Below, one piece after another: positions 3,449 to 52,578 of a stretch of 64,000 nucleotides of DNA. Positions within the stretch are counted from its first letter, which is position 1. The number at the start of each line of letters is the position of its first letter. The notes under the pieces were generated by a model that worked only from the letters and a program-made list of their open reading frames with translations, ran no database searches and was not told where the DNA came from. Source of the stretch: an uncultured archaeon (GTDB lineage Archaea; Asgardarchaeota; Heimdallarchaeia; Heimdallarchaeales; Heimdallarchaeaceae). Position numbers and translations under genes: made by a program. Location: positions 4,314 to 68,313 of the forward strand of contig CAZJUB010000004.1 of the NCBI GenBank assembly GCA_964549075.1, written 5' to 3'.

Positions 3449-3617
3449 AAACTTTACATTGATATTTTAAATAGTTATCGGGGACAAGAGTAAAAGAAAT
3501 AGAAGTGAAAAAAGATTCATTTTTTAACATTTTCAGTTTAGTTATAAAAAAATTTTTGAAAGTAAAACCAAAGCTGAGAATCCTTATATAATTTTAAAAA
3601 TTATAAACAGAATTGTA

Positions 3618-6408: not shown

Positions 6409-8442
6409 TTAGAGATTCACTTGTTCTAGAAGGTCATCTATTTTACCAGGAACAGCTGAAACAAATTTGGTTACCACAGGTGGAATTTCCTTAATTCTAC
6501 TAGCTAAATTCATAGCCCACATTCTTATATCAGAGCTGACTTCAGAAGCAATAACTGCAATGATTCCGTTATTAATTGCTTGAAGAGAGATACAAAAATC
6601 TTCATAATTGACATCTTTCAATCGTCCTATTTCATCTCCTTCAAGAATACTTTCTGCAAATTGTGTAATAGCCATTAAAAGTCCAGAAAGAAGTAAATCA
6701 TTTGTTTTTAGTTTATCTTTTAATTTAGAATAGATTGGAATCCCAGAGTCAGAGATAATTAATACTCCTAAAACTTCAACAGGTTTCTGTCTTGATTGTG
6801 TAAGTTTCAATGATAAAAGAGATTTAAATTGTGGAAGGATAAATTCTATAATGTTCTGGCTTTGTAGATCTAAAAGACCAGTATCTACAGCTTTATTGAT
6901 GCTCGTTTCGATTTTGTCTATATCACTCAAAAGATAATCAATATCAATATTTTTGCTAAGTTCTCTTGCTTTATCTAAATCTCGTATAGAATCTTCATAA
7001 TCACCAGTTAAAAGACAAAGAACCGAACAAATCATTAACGAGGTAGTTAAGATCTGGTTATGGTTATTTTCAATTGCCAACTGTCTAACAGTATCAATAT
7101 AAGACACTGCTAGATTGAGTGATTCTTTTTTCTCAAGTAATCTATAATACCAAAGATGAGCAACAGCAAGTTGAATATTACAGAAAAGAATAAGTTCCAA
7201 ATCTTTTGTATGTTTTGCTTGTTTAAGCGAAGATTCAAGATATGCTAAAGCATTAGAGAGGTTATGATTTAGCATCTCATAAAAACCACGTAGATAATCA
7301 ACTCGTGCGTTTATAGAAGGTGCTTCTAGTTGTTTTGCTAGTTCTCTAAGTTCTTTCAAATATTTCTTAGAGGAATTTAAATCTTCAATTCTGAGGTAAT
7401 AATGAATTAATTCGTACATGATGAAAGCTTTGTGCATAGATTTTTCTTGTCGTTGAATCTTATATGCATGTAAGAACGATTCCTCAGCTCTTTTATCTCC
7501 AAGGAGATAATAGATATTCCCTATCTCAGTGAGATATAAATAAGGCCATTGACCGGTAGATTCTTTATAGAGATTTATTGCACGTTCCATTAATTCTTTA
7601 GATTTCTGTACCTGTCCTAATTCTAACAAAACCTCTGCTAGGTTACCTATAGCTATAGATAGCCTGTAATCGTCATTAAATTGTTCATGAAGTTCAATCA
7701 ACTTTTCAAAACTTTCCATTGCTTTAATATTGTCTCCAATAAAACTATCAATTGATCCTTTAACATTCAAATAACTAGTTTGTACTTGATAAAAGTTGTA
7801 TTTTTTCACATATGGGTCAATAAAATCAATTAACTCTTCAAAATCAACTTCAATTCCTGAATGCAGATACCACCAAAGTGAGTTCATGTAAGCTTCTTGT
7901 AAGCCACATTGTTCAACAAAATTGTCTGTTTCTTTGATACGATTTTTGACATAATTATGAATTTCTTTGATTTTTGCGATATCCCCTTGTTGACCATACA
8001 TCCACGAACTTATTTCTGCGATATGAGCTTTCATTTCATCTGAATAATCGGTTTTGCTCTCTAGAACCTTAATTATTGATTTAAGTTTTTCAAATGATTC
8101 TTCATAATTTGTAGGATTCTCTTCAAAATAAATTATATAAGCTTCAATATAATCATGTTTTACTTTTTTAAGTAAATCAATAAAATACTCGTCTGCTTTC
8201 ATTTTTTGAGTTAGATAACAACACAAACTGGCTACATTTAATCTATCTTGAACACTGTATTTTTTAGGATTTTCAAGAACTTCCTCTAAGGCAAGTGTAG
8301 CTCCTTTTCTTATCTCTTCATTTAGATTTCTTTCTTCTTGATTTTCTATATACTCCTTTAGTTTTAAAGCTAAGGAAGAAGATAATTTAGCTACGAAATC
8401 GTCTAGAAAGTCTTGCATTATCAAATATTTTTTTCTGTTCAA
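6409..8442 (-). CDS. TPR-repeat protein with a C-terminal roadblock/LC7-like domain
   Basis: 677 aa. The central region consists of TPR-like helical repeats. The C-terminal ~110 aa (nt ~6409-6770) reads VLGVLIISDSGIPIYSKL...FCISLQAINNGIIAVIAS. This matches the roadblock/LC7 pattern G-V-x-G-x-I-V-x(4)-G-I-P-I followed by the beta-strand L-x-F-x-I-x-x-x-x-x-x-I-x-V-I. Confidence 0.55.
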   Translation of the reverse strand: MNRKKYLIMQDFLDDFVAKLSSSLALKLKEYIENQEERNLNEEIRKGATLALEEVLENPKKYSVQDRLNVASLCCYLTQKMKADEYFIDLLKKVKHDYIEAYIIYFEENPTNYEESFEKLKSIIKVLESKTDYSDEMKAHIAEISSWMYGQQGDIAKIKEIHNYVKNRIKETDNFVEQCGLQEAYMNSLWWYLHSGIEVDFEELIDFIDPYVKKYNFYQVQTSYLNVKGSIDSFIGDNIKAMESFEKLIELHEQFNDDYRLSIAIGNLAEVLLELGQVQKSKELMERAINLYKESTGQWPYLYLTEIGNIYYLLGDKRAEESFLHAYKIQRQEKSMHKAFIMYELIHYYLRIEDLNSSKKYLKELRELAKQLEAPSINARVDYLRGFYEMLNHNLSNALAYLESSLKQAKHTKDLELILFCNIQLAVAHLWYYRLLEKKESLNLAVSYIDTVRQLAIENNHNQILTTSLMICSVLCLLTGDYEDSIRDLDKARELSKNIDIDYLLSDIDKIETSINKAVDTGLLDLQSQNIIEFILPQFKSLLSLKLTQSRQKPVEVLGVLIISDSGIPIYSKLKDKLKTNDLLLSGLLMAITQFAESILEGDEIGRLKDVNYEDFCISLQAINNGIIAVIASEVSSDIRMWAMNLASRIKEIPPVVTKFVSAVPGKIDDLLEQVNL

Positions 8443-22110: not shown

Positions 22111-22839
22111 TCAGTTGAGTTTCAATTTCTTTAACATTTTTTCTGCTGCTTCTTTTTTTGCAGCTTTTCGATTTTGTCCTTTCCCAATAGTACTGATGGT
22201 TTTATCTTCAATTATGACTTTACATTCCATATGGAAAACTGGTTCATGATCACTTCCTCCTTTTTTGATCAAACTATATTCGGGAAGATCAAGATCTTCT
22301 TTTTGAAAAAATTCTTGTAATATATTTATGGGATTTTTTTCGCAAATAGTGAGTTTCAGAATCTTTTCTCTTCCTTCTTCGTTTTTCAAATCTTCTTTAA
22401 ACTGATGAAGATTTTTCTGAAAGATTCTTCTGAAAAACTCTCTAGCTACATCAAGTCCTTCAGAAAGATAGAAAGCGCCAAAAATTGCTTCTACTACATC
22501 CTCTAAATCTGTTTCTGCTACTTGATACTTTGATTCTGTTCTAAGATATTTTGCTATTTTCAAATCTTTTCCTACTTCTGCAAGAGCATTTGTTCTTACT
22601 AATAATGATCGAAGTTGAGACATCAAACCCACTTCCTCATCAGTTTCTTTAAATAGCCATTCTGCTGATAATAAATCTAATACAGCATCACCTAAAAATT
22701 CAAGTCTTTCAAAATCTTTAGCATCTGGATGTTCTGCTTTTAGATTTGGATGAGTAAATGCTTCTAGCAGTAGATCTTTATTTATTTTCCAGTCCAAAAT
22801 TATTCCATTTTTAAAATCTATTTTATTGGTTTTAGACAT
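22111..22839 (-). CDS. rnc: Ribonuclease III with a C-terminal dsRBD
   Basis: RNase III signature ERLEFLGDAVLDL. The catalytic region reads DVVEAIFGAFYLSEG. The C-terminal dsRBD reads HEPVFHMECKVIIEDKTISTIGKGQNRKAAKKEAAEKMLKKL. Confidence 0.85.
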   Translation of the reverse strand: MSKTNKIDFKNGIILDWKINKDLLLEAFTHPNLKAEHPDAKDFERLEFLGDAVLDLLSAEWLFKETDEEVGLMSQLRSLLVRTNALAEVGKDLKIAKYLRTESKYQVAETDLEDVVEAIFGAFYLSEGLDVAREFFRRIFQKNLHQFKEDLKNEEGREKILKLTICEKNPINILQEFFQKEDLDLPEYSLIKKGGSDHEPVFHMECKVIIEDKTISTIGKGQNRKAAKKEAAEKMLKKLKLN

Positions 22840-24004: not shown

Positions 24005-25963
24005 ATGAGTATTCTAGCTTACCTTGAGAAAATTCTACATAAAATCGACAAAGTGTTGTTGAACCAAGGTTATACGGAAGATGAATTACATCAAGAAGGA
24101 TTTCGAATTCTTGGAGAATTATATTTACTCAGTAGTTTGGAAAGAAATGGTTTGTTAAATGCAAATGATAGTTTTCAAAATAAGCAGAAAGAAGTCGTAA
24201 ATTCTTTTCCAACGATCTTATCAGGAAAAATAGATACTTTATGCAGTAGTGCTTATGATGATTTACTTAAGCTTAGAGAAAATTATCAAAAAGATTCTCA
24301 ACTAGATATTCTTGGATCTTTATATCAGAATGTTCTTACAAGATGGTATATCCAAGATCAAGGGATTGTTTTTACACCTGTACCAATTGTAGAGTATATA
24401 CTATCTCAAATAGACTTTCAATTAAATTCATTTCAAAAAGATGAGAATATAATTGATTTATCATGTGGTTCAGGAATTTTTCTTCGTAAAGCTGCAGAGA
24501 ACGCAATTAAAAGTGCTATCTTTAAGAATGAAGAATATAATTTTATCCAAGAATACGTAAATAAAAACATTATAGGTTTTGATATTGATCCTGATGCGAT
24601 TTTTATTTCTCACATCAGTTTAACAGATCTTTTAATAGAAAAACTAAAACAAAATTACTCATTAGATATTAAATTTAATCCTAAAATTTTCCAAACAAAT
24701 TCTTTAGTTGAGAATGATAAAAATGATATCTTAGAAGTACAGAATCTCAAACATTCAAAGTTTAATTATGTAGTTGGTAATCCGCCTTATATAGAATCCA
24801 AAATTATGGATGAAGAAACTAAACAAATATGTATTCAGCATTTTCCTGAAGCAGCTAGGGGTCATTTTGATGTTTATTCATGTTTTCTATCTTTAGGAAC
24901 AAGAGTATTAACGAAGGGTGGAAAATTAGGTTATATTATTCCAAATAAATTTCTCAGCTCTAACTATGCTAGAAAACTAAGAGAAAAATATCTCTCTTCA
25001 AACTGTATTTCTCAGATAGTTGATTTATCACATAATGGTGTATTTCAACCTGCAGTATACCCTATAATTTTGATAATAGATAATCAAAATACTTTAAAAA
25101 ATAGCATCAAAATTTCTCGAGCAAAAAGCCTTAACGACTTATCTCTTGATACTTTTTCTCATAACACAAAGATCGTAAAAACGAGTAATTTTCTTAAAAC
25201 TTATAATAAAACAATTTTCATCCTTGAAAATCCAATATTAGATATGGTAAACAGGATTTTCTCAGCGAGTTCTTTGACTTTAGGTGAGTTAGTTAGATTT
25301 CGGTGGGCAATTTCGTTTCATAGAAAAGGATTGCGGGAATTGTTTGTATCAAAAGTCCCTCGAGGACACTCTCCTGTTAAATTTCTTGGGGGTAAAGCTT
25401 TTGGAGGAAATAGAGAAATCAATCGTTATAACTTAAATTGGAAAGGTTATTGGATTGATTACGACCATAAAAAAGCAAAAAGTGTTAGGAATAATTTTCC
25501 TGATTATGAGTATTTTAAAAAAGAGAAAATTATAATTTGTCAGCATGCATTAAGAATAAGAGCAACAGTAGATTATGAAGGATATGCATGTAAAGATATT
25601 TTTATTATTGGGCATCTTACAAAGAAATCAAGAGAATTAAGGATTAGTCTAGAATACATCCTAGCGTTACTAAATTCAGAACTATATAGTCATCTCTATT
25701 CAAATATGTATTCTAGTACAGAAATTATGGGTAAATATCTTCACTACTTACCAATGTATCTACATGATCTTCCCGTAATAAAACCTACAGAAAGCGACAT
25801 TGTATATCTAGAAAGTTTGGTGAAAAAAAGATTACAACAAGCAAGTGATGAGTTCTCCTCAATTGATGAAGAAATTGATCAGAAAGTCTATGAAATTTAC
25901 AATTGTAGCAAAGAAGAGATAGAACTAGCAAAAAAACATATAAAAGAATATCTAGTGAAATAA
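24005..25963 (+). CDS. N6-adenine DNA methyltransferase, Eco57I/TaqI-like gamma-class
   Basis: 652 aa. Contains an N-terminal helical domain, motif X IVFTPVPIVEYIL, motif I IDLSCGSGIFL, motif IV VVGNPPYIESK, and a ~350-aa C-terminal TRD-like region. Confidence 0.7.
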   Translation: MSILAYLEKILHKIDKVLLNQGYTEDELHQEGFRILGELYLLSSLERNGLLNANDSFQNKQKEVVNSFPTILSGKIDTLCSSAYDDLLKLRENYQKDSQLDILGSLYQNVLTRWYIQDQGIVFTPVPIVEYILSQIDFQLNSFQKDENIIDLSCGSGIFLRKAAENAIKSAIFKNEEYNFIQEYVNKNIIGFDIDPDAIFISHISLTDLLIEKLKQNYSLDIKFNPKIFQTNSLVENDKNDILEVQNLKHSKFNYVVGNPPYIESKIMDEETKQICIQHFPEAARGHFDVYSCFLSLGTRVLTKGGKLGYIIPNKFLSSNYARKLREKYLSSNCISQIVDLSHNGVFQPAVYPIILIIDNQNTLKNSIKISRAKSLNDLSLDTFSHNTKIVKTSNFLKTYNKTIFILENPILDMVNRIFSASSLTLGELVRFRWAISFHRKGLRELFVSKVPRGHSPVKFLGGKAFGGNREINRYNLNWKGYWIDYDHKKAKSVRNNFPDYEYFKKEKIIICQHALRIRATVDYEGYACKDIFIIGHLTKKSRELRISLEYILALLNSELYSHLYSNMYSSTEIMGKYLHYLPMYLHDLPVIKPTESDIVYLESLVKKRLQQASDEFSSIDEEIDQKVYEIYNCSKEEIELAKKHIKEYLVK

Positions 25964-25988: not shown

Positions 25989-28028
25989 TTGGTTGAGTTT
26001 ATGTCAAAAGAGAGTACCGATGAGGTGATAAGTTCTTTTCAGGAGTTCATAAATAATCACCCAAAGCTACAAAAATCCTATGAAATCACCCGTTCTTTCC
26101 TTCATCGAAAAAGTACGGAAGGTAGCGAAGCTTTTAGAGAAAGTATGAGTAAAACTTGGTTTTTTACCCGAGAGAATATTATTCCTTATTTTGCTCCTCT
26201 TGCTTTCATCTTTCTATTGTTTTATTTCATATTTTTATACCCATTTATCAAACTATTTACTTGGTTATATCGAATTCTTTTACCTCCTAAGTTTCGTAAT
26301 AATTTAAAGAAAGTTTCATTTATCATTATTGCAGGTTTATTTACTTTTGTGTCAGTTGTAGGAAAGATACTTTTAGTTATTTATGATATCTTAGTTCCAA
26401 CAGGATTACGAGAACTTGTACCTCTTCTTCAATTGTACAGAAAATATGTGTTAGTTATTTCAAATATCTTATCTGGAGAGAAATCTCAAGAGATTATGGA
26501 AGTATCAGAAGAGCTAGATGAATTGATGCTAAAAGAACAAAAAATGATAAAGAATTATCCTATTAGAAGAGGAGTAGGTGAGGTCATCAATTTAGCTGTT
26601 ACTCCTTTGGTATTTATAGCAATACCTACTCTTATTGTACGTATTTTTCGAATAGGTTATGCAACACTATTCTTTACTATAGATAAACTTTCAACTCTTG
26701 GTCCTCTAGGTCCTCATAATTATCTAAGGTACTTTGATTTACTCAGATTGATTCAGGATTTAACAGGTTTAGGACCTATCTATTCTGTAGCTTTATTTGG
26801 TACTGGCTTACTTCTTGCAAGTTGGATCGCAACCATATTTGGACCAATTTATGCAGTATTTCACAGCTGTAGTGTTACCTTGATGAGGTTTGGATCATAT
26901 CGTTGGGCTAATATTTACCAAAGTCTAGAAAATTTCTTTTCTCTTCCTTATTATGCTGCAAAATCATCTTTCAGTTTCTTTGATGCTCCTCCGATATCAA
27001 TCGAAACGTACAAGGATTTTAAATTGGTAATTGAGGATGAAGTAGATACGATAAAAGAGAAAGTTCAATCACTTATTGTTTTAGATAGTGTTAAAGTCCC
27101 TGAACGTTCCAAAGAGATGTTAGAAGATCTTTTAGGGAAAGCTGAATTGACTTTAAATGAGCTTGATATTTCACGAATAGAACAAGAAACAGCTCGAACA
27201 TTTGCACTTCTTATTTGGAGTAAAGAAGCATCAATTTTTCCTTGGATATCAAATGAAGCTAAAAGCACATTCGCTAAACAAAATGATATGTCTGTTGAAG
27301 AAGTAGGAAAAGCTTTTAGTTTGATTCTAAAGAAAATTGATGAAGGGTATCTCACAGATGATCTTTTTTCGTCTGTTTTAATAACCGGAGCTTTGAAAGG
27401 TATTAACGATCAACAAAAGAAATACAAACAGCTATTAGATGATATCGAATATAACAAACTAGCTATTTCCTTAGCTCTAGGAGCAAGACAATATCTAAAG
27501 GATCAATTTGCAAAAAAACCTTGGTATAAGAAAATTGGAAAGAAGATTTTAATTTCATTAATTGCTCCTTTTATGCCTTTAGCTGTTATAATTCTAGCAT
27601 TTTATAACTATTTCAAACACATAATTTTGTCAACATTAAAAGCAATCATTGCTTTAGGAACAACCCGTGTAGGTCGTTTTATTTCTAGAAGATTTCTAGA
27701 AATTCGTGATACCATCATAACTACTTTTGACACAGTATCTTCGATGGGAAAAGAATTTAGCTTCAAAGAAGATTTGAATATAGATTTTAACAAGGCTCTC
27801 AAAATAACTGGAAAGATAATATTTAGACTAATCTTTTTTGTACCAGTACTTCTTTATTCTCTTTACAAAACAATAAGAAGATTATTTTACAGGATCTTTA
27901 AAAGGAGAAGTGAGGAGGAAGGGATGAGAAGAAGGTTTGAAAGAGAATTAGCAAAAGCATCTCTTGTGGCAATGTATCAAGAGATTTATGATAAAATGTT
28001 AATCTCAGACTTATTAATTACAGATTAA
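25989..28028 (+). CDS. Large polytopic membrane protein of unknown function (paralog family member 2)
   Basis: 679 aa. It starts 25 bp after the methyltransferase stop. Conserved blocks: VPTGLRELVP, NYPIRRGVGE, FGPIYAVFH, SLPYYAAKSSFSFFDAPP, ARTFALLIWSKE, MYQEIYDKM. Confidence 0.6.
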   Translation: MVEFMSKESTDEVISSFQEFINNHPKLQKSYEITRSFLHRKSTEGSEAFRESMSKTWFFTRENIIPYFAPLAFIFLLFYFIFLYPFIKLFTWLYRILLPPKFRNNLKKVSFIIIAGLFTFVSVVGKILLVIYDILVPTGLRELVPLLQLYRKYVLVISNILSGEKSQEIMEVSEELDELMLKEQKMIKNYPIRRGVGEVINLAVTPLVFIAIPTLIVRIFRIGYATLFFTIDKLSTLGPLGPHNYLRYFDLLRLIQDLTGLGPIYSVALFGTGLLLASWIATIFGPIYAVFHSCSVTLMRFGSYRWANIYQSLENFFSLPYYAAKSSFSFFDAPPISIETYKDFKLVIEDEVDTIKEKVQSLIVLDSVKVPERSKEMLEDLLGKAELTLNELDISRIEQETARTFALLIWSKEASIFPWISNEAKSTFAKQNDMSVEEVGKAFSLILKKIDEGYLTDDLFSSVLITGALKGINDQQKKYKQLLDDIEYNKLAISLALGARQYLKDQFAKKPWYKKIGKKILISLIAPFMPLAVIILAFYNYFKHIILSTLKAIIALGTTRVGRFISRRFLEIRDTIITTFDTVSSMGKEFSFKEDLNIDFNKALKITGKIIFRLIFFVPVLLYSLYKTIRRLFYRIFKRRSEEEGMRRRFERELAKASLVAMYQEIYDKMLISDLLITD

Positions 28029-28038
28029 ATAGTGATAC

Positions 28039-29829
28039 TTGCGGAACATTAAAATTCTTTTAAGAAAATGTTTTTCAATGTCTTCTAGTGCTAATGTCAA
28101 TCAAGCAGATGAAGAAATAACTGAAAAAGAAGAAGAGATAAACAAAGAAGTATCTGAGGGAACTGGAGAAGAGGAGGAAAAATTTCAAAGTAAAAAGAAA
28201 GGCAAATTTACCTTTACAATTCTTTCTGTAATAATATCAATTGTTTCTATTAGCACAAAATTCATGATAATTATTTATGATATTTTCATCCCAAAAGCAC
28301 TTCGTGAATATGTTCCTTTTCTAAATATGGTTCGTAAAATTGCTTTACCCATTTCAGAGATACTTGCAGGAAAGAAATCAAAAGAAATAACTGAGGTAAC
28401 AAATGAACTTGATGAATTGGATATTCAAAAAGAGAAGGTAATGAAAGCTTATCCTCTTCGAAGAACTATTGGGCAAGCGATAAGTATGGGTGTTTCTCCT
28501 CTTATTCTAATTGTAATTCCAACTATTATTTGGGGTGACACTTTGATCGACAAAATCCAACTAGCTCTTAATATACCAGAAGATTATCAATGGGTAATTT
28601 TTCTGCTATTGGGAACTATTATGTTGATTTTATCATGGATTGTAACCGTTTTCGGACCGTTTTATGTTATTTTTCATAATTCGAGTAAATATATGCTAAA
28701 ATTAGGAGCTTACAGGTGGGCAGCCATATTTCAAGATTTAGAAAATCTATTTGCTATCCCTTATTTTACTGCTAAATCTTCGTTTAGTTTTTTTGATGCA
28801 CCTCCAATCTCAAGTGAGACTCTAGAGGAATTTAAACTAGACATTAAAGACGAAGTAGAAACAGTTAAAGAGAAAGTGGAAGGATTGCTTGCACTCGACA
28901 CGAAGAATGTTCCTGATCGATCAAAAGAACAGCTTGAGAAACTCCTCAAGAAAATAGAGATCCCATTGGAAAAATTAGATTTATCCAAAGTTAAAGATAG
29001 TACTGCTAGAACATTTGCATTATTAATCTGGTCTAAAGAATCATCTATTCTTCCCTGGAGAAGACAAGATGCGTTAGAGAAATTTGCTGAAAGAAATAAT
29101 CTAACTAATCAAGAAGTCAAGGAAGCTTTCATTCTCTTAAACAAAAAGAGAAAGGAAGAAGGTATATCTGAGGAAACTGTCAAGTCAATTCTTGTTACAG
29201 GAGCACTAAAAGGAATTGAGAAACAAGAAGAGAAATATGAACAAATAATGACAGATATTGAAGCTAACAAACTAGCCATTTCTTTAGCATTAGGTACAGA
29301 ACAATATTTAGAAGACCTTTACTCAACACTTCCATTATTCTTAAAGATTCTAAAGGAAATTAGTTTTTCAATTTTAGCCTTTTTAATGCCATTTCTGCTT
29401 ATAATTATAGCAATTTTACTTTACATCAAACATGTCATCTTTACTCTGTTCAAGACATTATTTTCAAAAGATACCTTAAGGATTCATAGATATATTAAGA
29501 AAAGATATAAAGAAATCAAAAACACACTAGAAGAAACTTATCAATCTGTAAAAGAAAAAGGTAAGAAATTCAATTTCAAAGAAGATGTCGATATCGATTT
29601 CAAAGGCTTTTTCAAGAAAATTGGAAAAGGTTTCTTGAAACTTATTCTCGCTCTTATTAAATTAGCAATTCTATGGCCTTTATGGAAATCACTCTATATT
29701 CGTATAGCTAAACTTGTTGCAAATCGAAAACCAGAAGCAAAGATGAGAAAGATGTTTGAGAAAGAGCTCACAACAGAATCGTTGATTTTCATGTATCAAG
29801 AAGTATATGATAGATTAATTATTCAATAG
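28039..29829 (+). CDS. Large polytopic membrane protein of unknown function (paralog family member 3)
   Basis: 596 aa. It starts 10 bp after the previous paralog. Conserved blocks: IPKALREYVP, AYPLRRTIGQ, FGPFYVIFH, AIPYFTAKSSFSFFDAPP, ARTFALLIWSKE, MYQEVYDRL. Confidence 0.6.
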   Translation: MRNIKILLRKCFSMSSSANVNQADEEITEKEEEINKEVSEGTGEEEEKFQSKKKGKFTFTILSVIISIVSISTKFMIIIYDIFIPKALREYVPFLNMVRKIALPISEILAGKKSKEITEVTNELDELDIQKEKVMKAYPLRRTIGQAISMGVSPLILIVIPTIIWGDTLIDKIQLALNIPEDYQWVIFLLLGTIMLILSWIVTVFGPFYVIFHNSSKYMLKLGAYRWAAIFQDLENLFAIPYFTAKSSFSFFDAPPISSETLEEFKLDIKDEVETVKEKVEGLLALDTKNVPDRSKEQLEKLLKKIEIPLEKLDLSKVKDSTARTFALLIWSKESSILPWRRQDALEKFAERNNLTNQEVKEAFILLNKKRKEEGISEETVKSILVTGALKGIEKQEEKYEQIMTDIEANKLAISLALGTEQYLEDLYSTLPLFLKILKEISFSILAFLMPFLLIIIAILLYIKHVIFTLFKTLFSKDTLRIHRYIKKRYKEIKNTLEETYQSVKEKGKKFNFKEDVDIDFKGFFKKIGKGFLKLILALIKLAILWPLWKSLYIRIAKLVANRKPEAKMRKMFEKELTTESLIFMYQEVYDRLIIQ

Positions 29830-31038: not shown

Positions 31039-31611
31039 TCACCAATCTATTCCAAAAATTATTTCTAGTTCGAAAGGACTTATTATTTTTCCTTGATTGA
31101 AGTTCAAAAGTGTAATCCTATTGTTCAGATAAGATTTCAAATCTTTTATAATAACCTCATATCCCTCTTTATCAACTTCTTTATCAAGATGTAGCGTAAC
31201 AGTAAAAATCTTCATGGCACTATCATATTCAGTTTCAACATCAGCAACTAAATGAGCGAAGAATCTTGAGTTAAACATTTCATCTATTTCATTATATCGT
31301 TCTGTTAAAAACCACGCAGGAACTAATTCTTCCTCTTCTTCTGCAACTTCCTTATATGATTTTTTCTTCTTATCATGATATACACTAAGTAATTTAAAAA
31401 TAAGCTCATCTACTCTGAGCTTAAGATATTCATTCAAGGTTTCACTTTTCAACAGCTTTGCTTTGACATGTTCAAAGTAATCTGAGAACATGTCGTCACT
31501 ATAATGAATCATCTTTGAATCAAACCAATTTCCTACTGTTTCCAGAATCGAATTCAGGTCCAATTCAAAAATCAATGTTTCAACCTTTTCTTCATCACTC
31601 ATTGATATCAC
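31039..31611 (-). CDS. Hypothetical acidic protein
   Basis: 190-aa ORF with no recognised motif. Confidence 0.4.
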   Translation of the reverse strand: MISMSDEEKVETLIFELDLNSILETVGNWFDSKMIHYSDDMFSDYFEHVKAKLLKSETLNEYLKLRVDELIFKLLSVYHDKKKKSYKEVAEEEEELVPAWFLTERYNEIDEMFNSRFFAHLVADVETEYDSAMKIFTVTLHLDKEVDKEGYEVIIKDLKSYLNNRITLLNFNQGKIISPFELEIIFGIDW

Positions 31612-31776
31612 TTTTATGAAGTGAGATTAGTATACTTAATCCAAACTTGTTTAAATAGTATTCTGTGATATCAAGAAAATTTATTTAGAAAAAGGATAGT
31701 AATTGAATATATTAAATTGTATTACCCTTACATTAAGCTTTATTAGTTACAAAAATCAGAAAATAATAGGGGTTCT

Positions 31777-34700
31777 ATGAAATTAAATTTTTCAACTGCT
31801 ATTATCATCAGTATTGTATTTACATCCTTTCTTCTTAATCCACAATTGATCTCATTAATAAATAAATCTAATAATCAATCAACAGAATCAAGTCCAGAAA
31901 CGCAAACAAATAATATTCCTAATTATGATGACGATGTTTCTACCATTAAAAAAATTGAAACACCAGGTCATTATGCATTAAAAGCATTTTTTTCACAAAA
32001 TAACATCATAAATATAGGTCCTGAAGGCGATGCTTTAGAATGGGTTAGCTATGATGACATACGATATTCAGGATGGTCAAGTAGTTATTCAACCATGGAT
32101 TTCAGAATTGATAGTAGTTACACATATAATCCTGATTGTTGGCCAAATCAAGTTGATACATATACCTACATGAGAGATAATGGATATCCCTATCCTGTTT
32201 CAGTAATGTATAGCCCTGTTTTTGAAGAAGAAACATATATTCAAGGTAAAGTTCATTTTTTGACATATCTTCGAACAAATTTCGATTATGCTTATTCATT
32301 AACTATAACTTTTCGAATTAGACTCATGCTTTTCAATACTACAGATTCAACATCATCAGAGATTATATCGATAGAAGATGATTTAGGTTATGATGATTAC
32401 ACACAAGCAATTACTTATGATTACACCTTAGGTTCGCCAGTAACAATACCAGCTGGATTTCGGCTTAAAGTAGCTTATGATGCAAAATTATCTACTCTAA
32501 GTTATTCTGGAAATATGTTTCTATATGCAGGAGACAGAGGATATAACACTTTACATTGGAATATTTATGATGGAGATTATTCTGCGTATTATTCAATATC
32601 AAGTACTGATGAGATTTTAGGAGTTCAATTCGATATGTATGATACCATTTATCCTAATATCATAACTTCAGGATTTAGTAATAACACTATTTATCAAGAA
32701 AATAAAACAATTTCAATTGATGTATCAGGAGCAGAAGATAGTTCCTATACTTGGGATTATGGAACACCTGTTAGTTTTGGTACTTATACAACCACAGATT
32801 TACCTTTTACCATGGGCTGGCACACTTTAGCAGTACAAGCTCTAGATGAGTATGAGAACAACAAGACAATGATTTATGAAATAGGTTATGATGGTTCAAT
32901 AATTAATATTGCTCTTCAGAGTCCAAGTAACAATTCAGTTGTTGGTAAAGGAGAAATTCTTGATTTTGAGATATTTAGTATAGATTATGCAACGTATGAA
33001 TGGGATAATAGTGGAACGCAAAATAATTTAACATCACCAGAATATGACATTATTGCGCCAGCATTTGATGGAATTCACAATTTAACAATTACAACACATG
33101 ATGTTTTTGAAACTAAATCTTTCTATTATGAATTTAATTTTGATGGTATAGCACCAGCTATAAATCTCGTAGATGCTAGTGTGTCTAACAATTCTATACA
33201 ACCAGCTGGGAAACTCATTGACATCAATGTAACAGATCCTGTAGGAGTAGCTGAAGTGTATTATAAATGGGATTCAAGAGATAATTTTACTTGGTATGCT
33301 TTTGATGGATCTATCTATAGAACATATTTACCAGAATCGGCTGGAGTTCATACCCTTTATGTCTCAGCTAAAGATAATTATGACAATGCAATTAGTTTAG
33401 TTTTCCGTTTTACAGCTCAATTAAATCAAATATTAGTGGAATTAAGAAATGTTAATGACAACTCATACTTTCAAGGTAACAATGTTATAGAAGTAACTAT
33501 GCTTGGAATTAATAATACGATAAAATATAAATGGGACTCAGGAAGCGAATTAGATGGTTTATTAGATGCGTTTTATGTTAATTCAACGTTGATTCTAAAT
33601 GGAACTAATGTTCTTCCTTATTCACCCTTAGGAGAACATTATTTGACTATTAGAACCTTTGATACATCTGATATGCAGCATATTTATATTTTTAAATTTA
33701 CTTTGGATAGAGAAGCTCCTGTAATTCTCACAGACAAACTGGAATATGATGGGAAAAGATTTCTTGATACTGATACTTTACAATTTTCTTTTAGTGACAA
33801 TTTTGCTTCAGTGTCTCAGTTAGATGTAATCCTTTCTGTTGATGGAATTACAAACCATTCTCTTATATACCCTTACAATTTTAATCTTCTCTCACTATCT
33901 GATGGAACATATAATTTAACTATATATGTTTATGATATTGCAGATAATTTCGCGATAAGATCCTATCTAATAACTATAGATAATACTGCTCCTGAGATAG
34001 AAATCATTAATATGGAAGATATAGTTTATCTGCAAGGTCAGTATTATATTCCAGGTGATTTTAATGTATCTGTCTTAATAACAGATGATGATAGTCAGAT
34101 TAACAGTACATATTCATGGGGAGGAACAGAATATAATGATTTCAGTAATTCTTTCATCTTAAGTTTTATAGATGGAACTTCAGTCTTGTATATAAATGCA
34201 AGTGATTCTTTAGGAAATCATGAAGAAATTTCTATAACATTAACAATAGATAGTACAGCTCCTATATCCACCTTAGTCTTTCCTTTTATTAATTCTAAAA
34301 TCAATAGTAATACAACTTTAGATTTTGTTATTGAAGATATATCAAGAGCTACAATTGAAACTATATATTATACGTGGGATTATATTCCAGCAGCTATATT
34401 TTTTCCATTAACATTTAATAGTCTAGGCGAAGCAACATTCGATGGATATCCAGAATCTTTCTATCCAGCAAATGGCACAACAGCTGTTTTGTCAGTTTAT
34501 GTAGAAGATATAGTTGGGAATAACCATACATATACATATAGTTTTGTTGTTGATAATGAAGGACCAAATTATAATCTGCAACTATACAACGAGGATACTG
34601 AACAATGGGAAATTCTAAAAATTACAGAGACTTATCTTATAACTAATGATTCATTGATTAGAATAGTTGCAGAAAATACTGAAGATACTTTTAATTATTT

Positions 34701-36135
34701 CTGGAATAATGAAACAGATAGACCAATAAACAAATCGACTTGGTTAATTTCCGATGTTCCAGATTATGGTTTAGTCAATTTAACAATTGTTGCTAATGAT
34801 GACTCTGGAGAAAGATTATTTCCAAATGAAAAAATTATTACATTTCACTTTACTAATAAAAAAGAAGGTGCTCTTATAATTCTAAACTCCAATGATCAAG
34901 TAATATATGGAGATAATCTTAGAGTTCGAGTAGTTTTACAAGATGACCTATCAAATAATCAATCTATTATCAAAATTTCTGTGAACGGAACTTCTTTATC
35001 TTTCTCTTTAGAAACTGCAAGTATTTATTATTTTGACTATACTATACGAAAGTCTAAGGGTAATTATAACTTACAAATAATAGCTGAATCAGATCTTTAT
35101 TTTGGTAAAACAAATAATTCCTTAATCTATAATTTTGTCGTTCTTCCGCTTCCTCTCAATTTAACTATTGCTTCTTCAAGCTTAGAAGTAATAGCTGGTT
35201 CAGCAGTAGAATTAACAGGAACATTGACTTTCCTAAATGGAACCCCAGTTGAAGATATGGATTTAATTTTCAATTTTTACATTTATTATAAGGATAATAG
35301 TTTTTTCACTATTACAGCAGCATTTACTGATTATGATAATATTACAACTCGTACTGGGCAAACAAATTCTTATGGTATTGCAACAGTAACTTTTACCCCA
35401 ACAGAAGATTTGGACCATATTTCAGTAGATGTTTCCTTTGAAGGAAGTGATATATTAGGTAATATCTCTTTAGATTTTTCACAGTCAATTGTGGTTATTA
35501 AAGCAGGTTTACAATCTTGGCTTTTATATACAATTATAGGTGGAAGTTTAGTTATTATAGCTATAGTATCTCTAATAATATACAGAGCAACTAGATCAAC
35601 TCCTTTTGAAGATCTTCTAAGTAAAGTTACAGAAGAGGATGTGATGATAAAACTCCAAGAATTTTGTCCGGGTGTGATTCTTACTATTTTTGATCAAAGG
35701 CAAGGTGCTATACCTATTCTAACTGATCATTCATTCGGATTTGACCATAGTGGAAGAATTGCTTTAGAGTCAGATAATTTCATACTGAAAGTATCTGACC
35801 AAGCCTTTTCAGCTCTGGGATTTGAAGAAACACTTCAAGGAAGAAGATTGGGTTCGTTAACACTTCCAAATGAATCTATGCTAGGTTTTCTCCAAGGTAT
35901 TCAAATACAGAATAAAGAAGCTAGAGGAGGACTTGAAAATCTTGTTCTCGTAGTTTTAACTGATTTAGAATATGGTACAACATTATTAACCTACCAAGAG
36001 TATTTACATCCATTAATAGATGATTTACAAGCAATGCTTCAAGAGAAAAAACCTTTGAAGGAAATTGAAAGTCAGATGAGAGTAATTAGACTTCAAGCTG
36101 TAAAAGTAATTTTAGCTGGATACGAATTAGAATGA
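31777..36135 (+). CDS. Giant surface glycoprotein: signal peptide, ~7-8 cadherin/Ig-like repeats, one TM helix, and a ~190-aa cytoplasmic roadblock/LC7-like tail
   Basis: 1452 aa. N-terminal signal (MKLNFSTAIIISIVFTSFLL). It is Asn/Thr/Tyr-rich with dozens of N-x-S/T sequons. Repeats begin with D-x-x-A-P (DGIAPAINL, DREAPVILT, DNTAPEIEI, DSTAPISTL, DNEGPNYNL) and carry a (Y/K)YxWD motif (YTWDYG, YEWDNS, YKWDSR, YKWDSG, YTWDYI). The TM helix is SWLLYTIIGGSLVIIAIVSLIIY. The tail begins VMIKLQEFCPGVILTIFDQRQGAIPILTD (roadblock-like start). Confidence 0.6.
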   Translation: MKLNFSTAIIISIVFTSFLLNPQLISLINKSNNQSTESSPETQTNNIPNYDDDVSTIKKIETPGHYALKAFFSQNNIINIGPEGDALEWVSYDDIRYSGWSSSYSTMDFRIDSSYTYNPDCWPNQVDTYTYMRDNGYPYPVSVMYSPVFEEETYIQGKVHFLTYLRTNFDYAYSLTITFRIRLMLFNTTDSTSSEIISIEDDLGYDDYTQAITYDYTLGSPVTIPAGFRLKVAYDAKLSTLSYSGNMFLYAGDRGYNTLHWNIYDGDYSAYYSISSTDEILGVQFDMYDTIYPNIITSGFSNNTIYQENKTISIDVSGAEDSSYTWDYGTPVSFGTYTTTDLPFTMGWHTLAVQALDEYENNKTMIYEIGYDGSIINIALQSPSNNSVVGKGEILDFEIFSIDYATYEWDNSGTQNNLTSPEYDIIAPAFDGIHNLTITTHDVFETKSFYYEFNFDGIAPAINLVDASVSNNSIQPAGKLIDINVTDPVGVAEVYYKWDSRDNFTWYAFDGSIYRTYLPESAGVHTLYVSAKDNYDNAISLVFRFTAQLNQILVELRNVNDNSYFQGNNVIEVTMLGINNTIKYKWDSGSELDGLLDAFYVNSTLILNGTNVLPYSPLGEHYLTIRTFDTSDMQHIYIFKFTLDREAPVILTDKLEYDGKRFLDTDTLQFSFSDNFASVSQLDVILSVDGITNHSLIYPYNFNLLSLSDGTYNLTIYVYDIADNFAIRSYLITIDNTAPEIEIINMEDIVYLQGQYYIPGDFNVSVLITDDDSQINSTYSWGGTEYNDFSNSFILSFIDGTSVLYINASDSLGNHEEISITLTIDSTAPISTLVFPFINSKINSNTTLDFVIEDISRATIETIYYTWDYIPAAIFFPLTFNSLGEATFDGYPESFYPANGTTAVLSVYVEDIVGNNHTYTYSFVVDNEGPNYNLQLYNEDTEQWEILKITETYLITNDSLIRIVAENTEDTFNYFWNNETDRPINKSTWLISDVPDYGLVNLTIVANDDSGERLFPNEKIITFHFTNKKEGALIILNSNDQVIYGDNLRVRVVLQDDLSNNQSIIKISVNGTSLSFSLETASIYYFDYTIRKSKGNYNLQIIAESDLYFGKTNNSLIYNFVVLPLPLNLTIASSSLEVIAGSAVELTGTLTFLNGTPVEDMDLIFNFYIYYKDNSFFTITAAFTDYDNITTRTGQTNSYGIATVTFTPTEDLDHISVDVSFEGSDILGNISLDFSQSIVVIKAGLQSWLLYTIIGGSLVIIAIVSLIIYRATRSTPFEDLLSKVTEEDVMIKLQEFCPGVILTIFDQRQGAIPILTDHSFGFDHSGRIALESDNFILKVSDQAFSALGFEETLQGRRLGSLTLPNESMLGFLQGIQIQNKEARGGLENLVLVVLTDLEYGTTLLTYQEYLHPLIDDLQAMLQEKKPLKEIESQMRVIRLQAVKVILAGYELE

Positions 36136-50148: not shown

Positions 50149-50345
50149 TTCTCTTCTTTTCTTTTTTTTATTTCGAACGTATATTTTTCTTCATCAAGCC
50201 ACGGACATTTTGCACAAGAATCACACGATTCATTGCAATTTCCTCTAGATATGAAAAATCTCACAAATCGCCTTTTTATCTTAGTCCAGAAAGATAGTTC
50301 ATCAGCTGGTTCTTCACATGAGTTCATTTTTCTAACCTCAAACAA
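50145..50345 (-). CDS. Small Cys-rich protein translationally coupled to feoB (FeoB-associated Cys-rich protein-like)
   Basis: 66 aa with seven Cys (CEEP...CNESCDSCAKCPWL). Its start overlaps the feoB stop by 8 bp. Confidence 0.35.
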   Translation of the reverse strand: MFEVRKMNSCEEPADELSFWTKIKRRFVRFFISRGNCNESCDSCAKCPWLDEEKYTFEIKKRKEEN

Positions 50346-52578
50346 ATTGTGCTAATACATGATAAACAATTACCGTTAGTATAATGGTTATTGCTAGTGG
50401 ATAAAATATACCTACTATTGTTAGTTTCCAGCTCTTAGTCTCAGATTTAATTGTTGCAATCGTAGCAAAACATGGAGCATAAGTTAATTGAAAAAGCAAG
50501 AAGGATATAACTTGTGATACTTTCCAAGTCGTAGCTGTTATTCCACCTGGATAAAGTATTGTCAAAGCTGAGATTATAGTTTCTTTTGCCGGTATTCCAA
50601 AGATTAACGGAACAGTCATTCTCCAATCAAAGCCAAACAAAGGCATTGTAACTACTTGTAATCCTCTGCCGATATATTCAGCTATTGATAATTTGGTCAC
50701 TAAAATTGGGCTCATTTGAACATAAAGGAGAACTTCACTTTCAGTAGGTTTGACAAAAGGTACATTACTGAGAAACCATATAAAGAGGGAAGCTATAAAA
50801 ATAAAAGTTCCAGCTTTCTTAAGGAAGATACCACCTCGTTCCCAAGTTAGATTCATGACATTCTTGAATCTTGGTCTTCTGTAATCTGGTAGTTCTAAGA
50901 TCAAGGGAATTGGATCTTCATGCTCATAAAAGATTCTAAAGAGAAAAGCTGTTAACAAAACTAGTAATAAGCTAACTCCATAAAGAAGTAACATGATTAT
51001 TGCTGCTAACCAAGGTTGAAAGAATATACTAGTTAGAAACGCTATAACACCTAATCTCGCAGCACAAGGAATAAAAGAGTTAGCAATAATCATCGTTGTT
51101 CTGTCTTTTTTATTTCTGATTGTTCTTGTTGCCATTATACCTGCAACATTACATCCAAATCCCATAATAAGACTTAGAAAAGCTGAACCTTGCATCCCGA
51201 ATTTACCCATCACTTTATCCATTAAATATGCGGACCTTGCTAAATAACCTGAATCTTCTAGAACTGCAATTAGTGTATAGAAAATCAAGATGATAGGTAC
51301 AAATAAAAGAACAGCAGTAATTCCTGCTATGATTCCATTAACTAATAGACTATTCAAGAATGGAGGACTATTGATACTAACAAGCGAATTCATTGTCCAA
51401 TCTGAGAATTGAGTAAAAATCCATTCTAAACCACGTATTATAGGAGATGTAGCATAAAATGTTATTAGGAAAAATACTGCAAATACTGCTATGAGAACAG
51501 GATACCCATAGATTTTGTGAATTAGAACTTTATCAATTTTATCACTTACTGTTACTTCAAATGCTTCTCCTCCTTCAGTAACTTCATTTACTATATTATG
51601 TAAAGCACCATATTTTCTTTTAGAAATTTCAACAGATGGATCAAATTGTTCTATCCTTGCCAAATTTTCTATTTTTTCTTCAAGATTAGATAAATCAAAT
51701 TCCTGAGATATTTCTTCCTTTACTAAAGAATCTCCTTCTAGTATTTTGAAAGCTAACCATCTAGTTGGATAACTCAACATGGTTTCTCTTGCTTCAATTT
51801 GTTTTGAAATATTATTAATCATAAATTCAATTTTTGGAGGATAGACTACATTCGCAGGATTAAAGTGGTATTTATCTGTATGTAAGGAATCATAGATAAA
51901 TTTCTTTATTCTCAGAATATCCAAAATATCATATGCACAAACATAAAGAATCGGAACTCCTAGTTTCTCTTGCAGAAGTTGAGTATCAATATCAAGACAT
52001 TCTTTTTCTGCGATATCTTTCATATTTATAATGATAGCAACGTTTGAGGTCAATTCCATCACTTGAAGTGCTACAAATAAGGTTCTTTCTAATCTTGTAG
52101 CATCTGCAATTACACATACTAAATCAGGTTTTTCTTGAACAATATATTGACGAGTAACCAATTCTTCTTCAGATCTAGCAGCAAGAGAGTAAGCACCTGG
52201 TAAGTCGATTAATGAGAAATATTCGTCAGAAAGAATAAAATGACCTTCCTTTCTCTCTACTGTTTTTCCAGGCCAATTACCAATATGCTGGTGCGAACCT
52301 GTAAGAAGATTGAACAACGAGGATTTACCAACGTTAGGATTACCAAGAAAAGCTATCTTATGTTCAATCGAATGATCGTTATAAATATGTCTTCGCATAT
52401 GAGTACGAAAATGCATTCTAAATTCTTTTCTAAATCCAGTAAATTGTTTATTCCACTGAGTGCGAAAATGATGACTTATTCTTTGTTTAAATTTGTTAAA
52501 TTGTTTACGTCTAAAACCTTTTTTTCTCTTTCTTGAAGGTCTTCCTCTTCTATGGTGATGACCACGTTTGTTAGGCAT
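50338..52578 (-). CDS. feoB: Ferrous iron transporter FeoB, with a His/Arg-rich N-terminal extension if the first ATG is used
   Basis: G domain GNPNVGKSSLFNLLTG followed by a polytopic membrane domain. The ~70 aa upstream of the G1 motif read MPNKRGHHHRRGRPSRKRKKGFRRK...HFRTHMRRH. An alternative start Met lies ~19 aa before G1. Confidence 0.9.
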   Translation of the reverse strand: MPNKRGHHHRRGRPSRKRKKGFRRKQFNKFKQRISHHFRTQWNKQFTGFRKEFRMHFRTHMRRHIYNDHSIEHKIAFLGNPNVGKSSLFNLLTGSHQHIGNWPGKTVERKEGHFILSDEYFSLIDLPGAYSLAARSEEELVTRQYIVQEKPDLVCVIADATRLERTLFVALQVMELTSNVAIIINMKDIAEKECLDIDTQLLQEKLGVPILYVCAYDILDILRIKKFIYDSLHTDKYHFNPANVVYPPKIEFMINNISKQIEARETMLSYPTRWLAFKILEGDSLVKEEISQEFDLSNLEEKIENLARIEQFDPSVEISKRKYGALHNIVNEVTEGGEAFEVTVSDKIDKVLIHKIYGYPVLIAVFAVFFLITFYATSPIIRGLEWIFTQFSDWTMNSLVSINSPPFLNSLLVNGIIAGITAVLLFVPIILIFYTLIAVLEDSGYLARSAYLMDKVMGKFGMQGSAFLSLIMGFGCNVAGIMATRTIRNKKDRTTMIIANSFIPCAARLGVIAFLTSIFFQPWLAAIIMLLLYGVSLLLVLLTAFLFRIFYEHEDPIPLILELPDYRRPRFKNVMNLTWERGGIFLKKAGTFIFIASLFIWFLSNVPFVKPTESEVLLYVQMSPILVTKLSIAEYIGRGLQVVTMPLFGFDWRMTVPLIFGIPAKETIISALTILYPGGITATTWKVSQVISFLLFQLTYAPCFATIATIKSETKSWKLTIVGIFYPLAITIILTVIVYHVLAQFV

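Follow-up and report, generated by a model that had tools for sequence, protein, structure and literature searches.

The window, the whole 64-kb stretch of DNA from a Heimdall-group Asgard archaeon that was analysed, encodes a large predicted surface protein, and the question is what its C-terminal tail is and which partners this tail might regulate. The ORF call placed the whole gene at 31777..36135 on the + strand (stop codon included), as for all features below; it starts with ATG and stops with TGA, and its gene model is identical on two public contigs. A 1452-aa protein with a single transmembrane (TM) helix and a C-terminal tail was described in the original prediction, and both the ORF and the hydropathy analysis agree with this. 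Only two hydrophobic segments were found by hydropathy, the N-terminal signal peptide or anchor (aa 1-28, 31777..31860) and the TM helix (aa 1247-1269, nt 35515-35583), which has the sequence SWLLYTIIGGSLVIIAIVSLIIY. The residues RATR follow the helix directly and represent a positive-inside signal. Of the N-x-S/T sequons, 35 lie before the TM helix and 1 after it; the composition of the protein would predict about 19 over its full length. The N-terminal signal, large ectodomain, one TM helix and C-terminal tail are those of a type-I single-pass surface glycoprotein, as had been proposed. Hydropathy, the positive-inside rule, the sequon distribution and the nature of the tail domain suggest that the tail is cytoplasmic, and the ectodomain is probably glycosylated.

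The ectodomain (aa 29-1246, 31861..35514) is predicted to consist of Ig-like beta-sandwich repeats. Cadherin/Ig repeats had been suggested for it, and the Ig-like part was borne out by a Pfam match to Big_3_3 (E 4e-8, above the cut-off), together with weaker matches to Big_13 and PKD in Pfam and, below the cut-off, to an OmpL47-type barrel in NCBIfam. The tail includes 183 aa (aa 1270-1452, nt 35584-36132), C-terminal to the TM helix. Its earlier description as about 190 aa from 35554 was close in length; however, position 35554 lies inside the TM helix.

The structure of the tail was predicted with AF2 from a 46-sequence alignment, and the model has a pLDDT of 92.7 and a pTM of 0.88. Two N-terminal helices (tail residues 8-14 and 17-27) are followed by the order beta-beta-alpha-beta-beta-beta-alpha-alpha-alpha. 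The two short helices form the linker between the TM helix and the core (aa 1277-1296, 35605..35664); the core itself (aa 1299-1451, 35671..36129) comprises the beta-beta-alpha-beta-beta-beta part and the three helices, the last of which ends 1 residue before the C-terminus of the protein. The core thus contains the beta-beta-alpha-beta-beta-beta-alpha-alpha sandwich of the longin fold, and its nearest structural neighbours are longins, particularly the GAP longins and not the GEF longins. Searches by sequence gave no such assignment: the tail has no Pfam or NCBIfam match even at E<=10, and PDB sequence searches with 4- and 46-sequence tail profiles returned spurious helical designs only. It is very likely that the tail is a longin of the folliculin (FLCN)/SMCR8/NPRL2 ‘GAP-longin’ type, carried on a TM surface protein.

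The original prediction had assigned the tail to the roadblock/LC7 (MglB-like) domains, and the string that it quoted, VMIKLQEFCPGVILTIFDQRQGAIPILTD, is present in the protein. The opening (G-V-x-x-x-I...G-x-I-P-I) does resemble roadblock beta1-beta2, and a helix precedes beta1 in the AF2 model, as in roadblocks. However, PF03259 was matched neither by the window tail (E<=10) nor by 46 family tails (E<=1), and longins score about 4 Z units above roadblocks in the structural comparison. The Foldseek ranking agrees, with longins first and no roadblock among the matches listed. The helix arrangement differs from that of MglB, LAMTOR2 and the Asgard roadblocks, with long, longin-like C-terminal helices after beta5, and the conserved motifs are colinear with FLCN. 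A roadblock identity is therefore most improbable, and the AlphaFold check that had been proposed for a roadblock sandwich returned a longin. The notion of a receptor-like protein with a GTPase-regulatory tail holds for the architecture; whereas the putative regulatory module is very likely of the FLCN-type longin rather than the roadblock type. A second roadblock had been placed on the TPR protein at 6409..8442, which was not confirmed, as no Pfam match was found at E<=10. For this TPR protein, an Asgard roadblock structure was matched in register but without significance (E 0.15), and the single-sequence AF2 model of its C-terminal 130 aa (pLDDT 46) was too poor for use. A SNARE-like reading of the tail was also rejected. 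The R-SNARE longins have an N-terminal longin followed by the SNARE motif and then the TM helix; whereas in the window protein the TM helix precedes the longin, and the SNARE motif is absent.

A word-index protein search with the tail revealed only 3 relatives, and the family emerged from an exhaustive profile search. It includes 121 representative clusters (50% identity) at E<=1e-3 and 27 at E<=1e-30, and all the named members are from Asgard archaea. The tail is conserved far beyond chance. The architecture is also conserved: 97/103 family representatives carry a TM helix no more than 35 aa ahead of the domain, and the domain ends 25 aa or less from the C-terminus in all 103. The proteins are large and variable, up to 4285 aa; their ectodomains are hypervariable, and the genes occur as tandem duplicates in some genomes, where all the paralogues keep the conserved Arg of the beta4-beta5 hairpin. 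Soluble family members also exist (P0051, P0134 and P0118).

Three conserved motifs were found in the 107 family tails, among which F1305, G1310, P1313, R1383 and R1438 are invariant, and ARGGxEN and SDxxFS nearly so. The FDQxxG(A/P)xP motif is located at the beta1-beta2 turn (aa 1305-1313, 35689..35715), and its F, G and second P are found in 107/107 tails. It aligns with the FLCN ‘GP motif’: the first P is present in 98/107 (G-P-x-P), and Ala replaces it in 9/107 (G-A-x-P), namely the window protein, which reads G-A-I-P, and 8 others. The SDQAFSALGF motif (aa 1340-1349, 35794..35823) lies in the central helix, with D in 105/107, S in 102/107 and F in 104/107. The ARGGLEN hairpin (aa 1382-1388, 35920..35940), identified by conservation and by the FLCN alignment, lies between beta4 and beta5; here R is kept in 107/107, GG in 102/107 and 101/107, E in 105/107, and N in 104/107. 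Arg1383 (35923-35925) is the candidate arginine finger and lies in the beta4-beta5 hairpin of the AF2 model; in the GAP longins, the catalytic arginine finger of the longin domain is R164 in FLCN and R147 in SMCR8. The GP motif and the arginine finger were reported to be the signature of GAP longins, including some in Asgard, and to be absent from non-GAP longins such as FNIP2 and NPRL3; the Gly-Pro site immediately precedes beta2 or opens it (PMC12290439).

The family profile was aligned by hhalign with a 27-sequence FLCN profile, from which the disordered FLCN insert 28-100 had been removed, and the FLCN sequence was checked against 6ulg_L. Between 118 and 140 columns were aligned with a P of 2.3e-4, at a probability of only 44%. 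The alignment pairs family F36 with FLCN F10, G41 with G14, position 42 with P15, and R114 with R164; Arg1383 fell on FLCN Arg164 in three hhalign runs (best P 2.3e-4). The comparison with the single human FLCN sequence was non-significant (E 0.16), yet the two Arg residues were already paired. Arg1383 thus aligns with FLCN R164, and the profile alignment and the position in the beta4-beta5 hairpin suggest that the two are equivalent. The Pfam Folliculin family (PF11704) gave sub-threshold matches in 12/46 members (best E 1.8e-4). Five of these matching members were inspected singly, scoring 12.5-17.8 bits against a cut-off of 23.3, and all five matches cover the Arg hairpin. The window tail itself has no PF11704 match at E<=10, and ten tails of a remote subfamily showed no Folliculin match in Pfam; the sub-threshold matches belong to the window's own clade.

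Gene neighbourhood was also considered. In 26/33 genome loci, the surface-longin gene or its tandem array has a Gtr1/RagA-family gene as an immediate neighbour; the linkage is inherited synteny of related genomes, and therefore these 26 loci are not 26 independent events. Neighbouring GTPases matched Pfam PF04670 with E values of 6e-32, 7e-26, 7e-31 and 2e-34, and their best PDB matches were human RagA (2.8e-20), Gtr1 and RagC/D. At least three different gene arrangements were found, with a fourth in a remote subfamily, where a Gtr1/RagA-family gene flanks 4/16 metagenome loci. L006 and L007 (tails 75% and 64% identical) are the nearest orthologous loci; there, a same-strand gene for a 180-aa Rag protein is found 87 bp upstream. 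In 13 loci, the gene directly upstream is Ras-family-like (Rab/Ras-like). The GTPase neighbour appears to have been lost from the locus in the window, where searches for a remnant (tblastn at E<=50; Rag HMM at E<=1) found nothing, and no Ras-superfamily gene was found within the 64-kb window, as had been noted from the sequence before. The Rag-type GTPase genes that adjoin the gene in related genomes suggest an archaeal receptor wired to a eukaryote-type nutrient-signalling switch.

The tail probably works with Rag-family GTPases at the membrane, either regulating or binding them. It would be a membrane-tethered longin on the inner face of the cell membrane, which binds and regulates the Rag/Gtr1-family GTPases. 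The most probable activity would be that of a GTPase-activating protein, with the invariant Arg1383 inserted into the nucleotide pocket, although the chance that Arg1383 acts in this way is put at somewhat below even. The longin GAPs known to us are all longin-longin dimers, and therefore two tails would probably work together as a dimer. An event outside the cell (contact, ligand binding or clustering, for example) would then be relayed by the ectodomain to the Rag-like GTPase inside and change its nucleotide state. Several features count against this reading. A GTPase neighbour is missing from the window's locus, the sequence similarity to FLCN is weak, and the window protein carries G-A-I-P at the G-P site of the GAP longins. 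The Arg is kept in every family member; whereas the eukaryotic GAP dimers are asymmetric pairs, in which one longin is catalytic and the other is not. Moreover, the majority of longin domains serve as GEF subunits or platforms rather than as GAPs.

The same conserved Arg is compatible with a non-catalytic platform, in which the longin tail tethers Rag-like GTPases or other partners to the cell membrane under the surface protein, much like the roadblock scaffolds Ragulator/LAMTOR and EGO on lysosomes. Its presence in all the members, unlike in the asymmetric eukaryotic dimers, would fit such a role; pure binding would account equally well for the fold and for the Rag gene linkage, and longin and roadblock domains are commonly GTPase-binding platforms (PMC10933270). 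However, the invariant hairpin Arg and the G(P/A)xP turn are features reported to be specific for GAP longins (PMC12290439), and conservation of the Arg in 107/107 tails exceeds the expectation for a docking surface, which makes a mere platform rather doubtful. A dimeric longin tail might also activate a small GTPase, either the Rag-like one or the upstream Rab/Ras-like one, in the manner of the DENN, Mon1-Ccz1 and TRAPP longins. Longins more typically have such GEF activity (PMC12290439), and Liu et al. (bioRxiv 10.1101/2020.10.19.343400) proposed it for an FLCN-like module of Asgard archaea; the 13 loci with a Ras-family-like gene immediately upstream are in line with it. The top structural matches are GAP longins rather than GEF longins; the arginine-finger and GP-type motifs are present; and no DENN or other accessory domain stands C-terminal to the longin. 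A GEF role thus seems quite unlikely.

It is less likely still that the tail has no GTPase role at all, and that it instead sorts, anchors or oligomerises surface adhesins or S-layer-like proteins whose genes stand beside Rag genes by fortuitous synteny. The window gene without a GTPase neighbour would agree with this, as would the hypervariable ectodomains and tandem duplication typical of adhesins and the occurrence of longins in SNAREs and coat adaptors. However, Rag genes flank the family genes in several arrangements and in a distant subfamily, and the conserved residues fit the catalytic signature of the GAP longins. A sorting signal was rejected, as the tail forms a folded domain of 180 aa with conserved motifs; whereas the archaeal sorting signals known to us are all short peptides.

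Among known systems, FLCN, a human tumour suppressor, and its yeast counterpart Lst7, which are GAPs for RagC/D and Gtr2 together with FNIP and Lst4, offer the closest comparison for a putative GAP tail. The family tails have a Gly-Pro-type turn before beta2 and a beta4-beta5 hairpin Arg aligned to the catalytic Arg164; the tail homologues are genetically linked to Gtr1/RagA-family GTPases, and the tail, like FLCN, is predicted to act at a membrane surface. The tail differs in that neither a DENN domain nor an NPRL2-specific C-terminal domain follows the longin, and in its fusion to an extracellular domain of about 1200 aa. It is anchored covalently by its own TM helix; whereas FLCN is recruited by Rag-Ragulator. 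The window protein also has G-A instead of G-P, and its similarity to FLCN is under the Pfam threshold. A functional likeness without homology is found in the plexins, which are single-pass receptors of animals and act on Rap through a cytoplasmic GAP domain whose activity is dimerisation-dependent. They likewise combine Ig/IPT-like ectodomain repeats and a single TM helix with a GAP module for small GTPases inside the cell (putative in the tail); whereas their catalytic fold is RasGAP-like instead of longin, and the GTPase family differs.

‘Folliculin/SMCR8-type longin’ proteins from the same phylum are already known in Asgard (PMC12290439; Liu et al.), and GAP activity on Asgard Rag or Arf-related GTPases is a common hypothesis for them and the tail, although a transmembrane form is unmentioned in PMC12290439. 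Liu et al. (bioRxiv 10.1101/2020.10.19.343400) described longin+DENN proteins, an operon that groups LAMTOR1-like, Rab-like and DENN genes, and fusions of NPRL2-like longins with two-component domains; TM surface proteins and Rag neighbours are not described there. The longin domain of a Lokiarchaeota Roadblock-Longin protein (8yqg, a dimeric crystal structure) belongs to a soluble two-domain protein rather than to a TM tail, and it was unmatched at the sequence level by the tail profiles in the PDB searches. In the searchable literature, we did not find a report of the TM-longin fusion or of the Rag gene cluster.

The longin GAPs FLCN-FNIP, GATOR1 and C9orf72-SMCR8 control the Rag and Arf GTPases on eukaryotic lysosomes, and their origin is an open question in eukaryogenesis. 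The Asgard longins with a catalytic signature were previously without known partner, location or input, and this family offers all three as hypotheses: the inner face of the cell membrane as the location, set by the TM helix; the Rag/Gtr1-type GTPases encoded beside the gene in most Heimdall genomes as the candidate substrates; and the large, rapidly diversifying extracellular domain as the input. The cytoplasmic part, with 183 aa, is short enough for direct biochemistry. A tentative possibility is that the Heimdall group has an outside-in module, in which a giant Ig-like receptor with its own folliculin-type GAP domain directly controls an adjacent Rag-like GTPase pair. Such a module might be a plasma-membrane precursor of FLCN-Rag(-Ragulator) nutrient sensing, with the receptor TM helix doing the lysosomal job of Ragulator. 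If the tail is a Rag GAP, the protein would be a receptor of a prokaryote that has a small-GTPase GAP domain built in, of which we know no reported example, and Rag signalling would seem to have begun at the cell surface and later moved to an internal compartment.

The surface-longin gene of the window (31777..36135, +) encodes a protein of 1452 aa. Two contigs in public data encode the identical protein, one of 147.7 kb from the Logan assembly of SRR9700688 and the other from a JGI metagenome. A 19-residue hydropathy scan revealed only two hydrophobic segments: a signal peptide or anchor (aa 1-28, +), and a TM helix (SWLLYTIIGGSLVIIAIVSLIIY; aa 1247-1269, nt 35515-35583, +) with RATR directly after it. 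The tail of 183 aa C-terminal to this helix (nt 35584-36132, +) is attached to the membrane by it. There are 35 N-x-S/T sequons N-terminal to the TM helix versus one in the tail. The ectodomain matches Pfam Big_3_3 above the cut-off (E 4e-8), and also shows weaker Ig-like and OmpL47-type matches. Because of the hydropathy, the RATR, the sequon distribution and the Ig-like matches, the predicted type-I orientation is well supported, but not proven. The original prediction described this receptor-like architecture accurately, except for the start of the cytoplasmic domain at 35554, which falls within the TM helix.

The AF2 model of the tail (46-sequence alignment) has a pLDDT of 92.7 and a pTM of 0.88, and its elements are ordered as two short helices, beta-beta-alpha-beta-beta-beta, and three helices. 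In the fold comparison, the highest Z score was obtained with the longin domain of a Lokiarchaeota Roadblock-Longin protein (8yqg, 12.7), followed by human folliculin (FLCN; 6nzd_H, 11.9), the Lst4 longin (11.4), FNIP2, AP-5 sigma and C9orf72 (each 9.8), NPRL2 (9.5) and NPRL3 (9.2); the roadblock proteins scored 7-8.8. Foldseek agrees with this ranking, and roadblock is absent among the matches listed. Pfam Robl_LC7 had no match in any of the 46 family tails searched. These three results argue against the roadblock/LC7 identity originally proposed for the tail, and its modelled fold is that of a longin. A second roadblock domain had been assigned to the TPR protein (6409..8442, −; TPR repeats at aa ~220-497). 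The C-terminal ~120 aa of this protein (6412-6801, −), starting VEVLGVLIISDSGIPIYSKL, look roadblock- or longin-like by sequence. They have no Pfam match, and align in register with the MK-D1 Asgard Roadblock3 (9jue_D) at a non-significant E of 0.15; the single-sequence AF2 model (pLDDT 46) was unusable.

No match to the tail was found in Pfam, NCBIfam or PDB sequence searches, and a word-index protein search gave three relatives, of which one belongs to a Heimdallarchaeota MAG. When 1.84 billion cluster representatives were searched exhaustively with a profile, a family of 121 proteins was recovered at E<=1e-3 (27 at E<=1e-30). All source-named members are from Asgard archaea, namely Heimdallarchaeota, Hodarchaeales, Kariarchaeaceae, Promethearchaeota/-ati, Odinarchaeota and one 'Thorarchaeota' MAG. 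For 103 representatives, there was enough upstream sequence to judge. In all of these, no more than 25 aa separate the domain end from the C-terminus, and in 97 a hydrophobic helix precedes the domain by at most 35 aa; 69 have a length of 800 aa or more, with a maximum of 4285 aa. Large and variable surface proteins thus carry the longin domain at their C-terminal end; a few members are soluble, and in these the domain comes after a zinc ribbon or coiled coil. For example, three short tandem genes (285, 249 and 282 aa) lie on a 252-kb Hodarchaeales contig (L003, 347-3078), at least two of them soluble family members that have a zinc ribbon or coiled coil at the N-terminus; the trio adjoins an Rce1-like protease and an LRR protein, with no GTPase nearby.

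In 107 aligned tails, F1305, G1310, P1313, R1383 and R1438 are invariant, and the motifs FDQxxG(P/A)xP, SDxxFSxxGF and ARGGxEN are nearly so. G-A-x-P replaces G-P-x-P in nine of them, namely the window protein and its closest relatives. Pfam Folliculin (PF11704) gave sub-threshold matches in 12 of 46 family tails (best E 1.8e-4), and in the five members inspected these span tail residues ~105-160, which comprise beta4, the Arg hairpin, beta5 and the next helix. For direct comparison, the human FLCN reference sequence was checked against PDB chain 6ulg_L (one mismatch in 579 positions), and a 27-sequence FLCN profile was built from database homologues. Its hhalign alignment with the family profile has a P of 3e-4 over 56 columns, or 2.3e-4 over 118-140 columns without the disordered FLCN insert (aa 28-100), and is colinear. 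VILTIFDQRQGAIPIL is aligned to FLCN VALCHFCELHGPRTLF, with F on F10, G on G14 and position 42 on P15; the central-helix motif is aligned to IVRQACVRSLSCEV; and IQIQNKEARGGLEN is aligned to FFIKDSLARGFQRW, which places R1383 on R164. Arg164 lies in 'SLARGF' of FLCN, as also checked against 6ulg_L, and is the catalytic arginine finger of FLCN. Statistically, homology to FLCN at the sequence level is modestly supported; taken together, the fold rank, the motif colinearity and the invariance indicate that the tail is a folliculin/GAP-type longin with a conserved Arg/GP-type signature.

The gene neighbourhood is the strongest functional clue for the tail. With one genome per GTDB species, 33 surface-longin loci (L006-L038) were surveyed, all from Asgard MAGs and including the complete Ca. 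Heimdallarchaeum aukensis genome. In the product of every complete gene, the signal is followed by an ectodomain of ~1200-1400 aa, the TM helix and the longin tail. All-against-all clustering of the neighbour ORFs gave two recurrent families. The Rag-type family (43 ORFs, 26 loci) has the G1 motif GLQAAGKT or GLSQSGKT, retains the DxxGQ and Rag-typical HKxD motifs, and matches Pfam Gtr1_RagA (PF04670) far over the cut-off (E 6e-32 to 2e-34); its best PDB relatives are human RagA (2.8e-20), Gtr1 and RagC/D. The Ras-family-like proteins (13 ORFs, ~245 aa, G1 motif GDGxxGKT) match Pfam Ras over part of the G domain (E 1.6e-6, e.g. L021 3019-3801, +). Their genes lie directly upstream of the surface-longin gene in L009, L012, L016, L017, L021, L026, L031-L036 and L038, with the stop a few bases from its start codon, and encode a second candidate GTPase partner.

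The commonest order is the Ras-like gene (+), one to three tandem surface-longin genes (+), a Rag gene of 550-690 aa (+) and a converging Rag gene of ~409 aa (−). The genes are closely spaced: in L021, 2 bp separate the end of the Ras-like gene from the surface-longin start, and the long Rag gene follows the surface-longin stop after 110 bp. In L006 and L007, the orthologous loci nearest to the window, a Rag gene of 180 aa precedes the surface-longin gene by 87 bp and has the same orientation; a 198-aa Rag gene is upstream and divergent in L037; and in 4 of 16 loci of a remote metagenome subfamily, a convergent downstream Rag gene of 712-751 aa is followed by one of ~190-300 aa. In 26 of the 33 loci, the surface-longin gene or array has a Rag gene as its immediate neighbour; most of the exceptions are contig ends, and the loci are not independent trials because of their shared ancestry. 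That the linkage has survived several rearrangements, and persists where the proteins are 35-55% identical, argues for a functional connection. Tandem pairs or triplets of surface-longin genes occur in L011, L012, L013, L017, L022 and L025; their ectodomains are divergent and their tails conserved, with the invariant Arg in all, and the products could form hetero-oligomers. In the main Heimdall clade (L013-L036, e.g. L021 3804-), the signal peptides share a motif resembling L(F/I)LI(I/L)LCLNSL.YY, whose conserved Cys might be lipidated as in a lipobox; the window protein lacks a Cys at this position.

The window and the loci L006 and L007 are in synteny (47-81% identity), with the common order of EamA transporter, 190-aa ORF, surface-longin, alcohol dehydrogenase, kinase and ABC transporter. 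The 190-aa ORF (31039-31611, −) has no Pfam family, and shares 81% and 67% identity with L006 and L007, respectively. Between it and the surface-longin gene, L006 has ~2.2 kb (1654-3867) encoding a cytochrome-b561-like membrane protein (456 aa) and the 180-aa Gtr1/RagA GTPase, and L007 likewise has this segment. In the window, just 165 bp of intergenic sequence lie between these two genes (31611-31777), with no GTPase remnant found; the segment has therefore been either deleted from the window or inserted in the other loci. As had been predicted, the Ras superfamily is not represented among the genes of the window: the P-loop ORFs encode ParA/CbiA-ferredoxin proteins, ABC ATPases and FeoB, and the non-ABC motif matches are explained by the ParA/CbiA pair, RNase III and FeoB. 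The GTPase partner, if any, must be encoded elsewhere in the genome. The ParA/CbiA pair with embedded 4Fe-4S ferredoxin domains, the bacterial-type RNase III with a dsRBD, and FeoB are located at 14665-16415 (+), 22111-22839 (−) and 50338-52578 (−). The window also has two restriction-modification-like genes for Eco57I/TaqI_C-type N6-adenine DNA methyltransferases (24005-25963, +; 4846-6348, −; Pfam Eco57I E 5e-30 and 2e-18). Downstream of the methyltransferase are two ORFs of no Pfam family (25989-28028, +, 679 aa; 28039-29829, +, 596 aa), which are similar to each other's L007 homologues (47% and 71% identity over a matched C-terminal ~360 residues), with L007 truncated by the contig end.

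Asgard FLCN-like longin-DENN proteins and NPRL2-like longin fusions have been reported in a preprint (bioRxiv 10.1101/2020.10.19.343400). The full-text literature searched, which covers few subscription journals and supplements, has no mention of a transmembrane-anchored longin on giant surface proteins, or of a surface-longin/Rag GTPase gene cluster. In MK-D1, small GTPase genes are generally outside operons with roadblock or longin genes, as stated by Tran et al. The main rival explanations are that the tail is a passive Rag-tethering platform or a GEF, and both retain the GTPase connection. According to PMC12290439, the GAP longins FLCN, SMCR8, C9orf72 and NPRL2 have as their signature a GP motif before beta2 plus an arginine finger, which some Asgard longins also carry, and which is missing from FNIP2, NPRL3 and the GEF/platform longins.

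In the proposed mechanism, the tail would be cytoplasmic, bind Rag-like GTPases and act as a GAP through Arg1383. Two tails would have to pair, because longin GAPs are known as longin-longin dimers and 8yqg also forms a dimer; engagement of the ectodomain might control this pairing. The plexin-type receptor-GAP would then be a functional analogue of the surface-longin protein, and FLCN acting on Rag at the lysosome a homologous one; whereas the membrane tether is Ragulator for FLCN-Rag, it would be the TM helix in these Asgard surface proteins.
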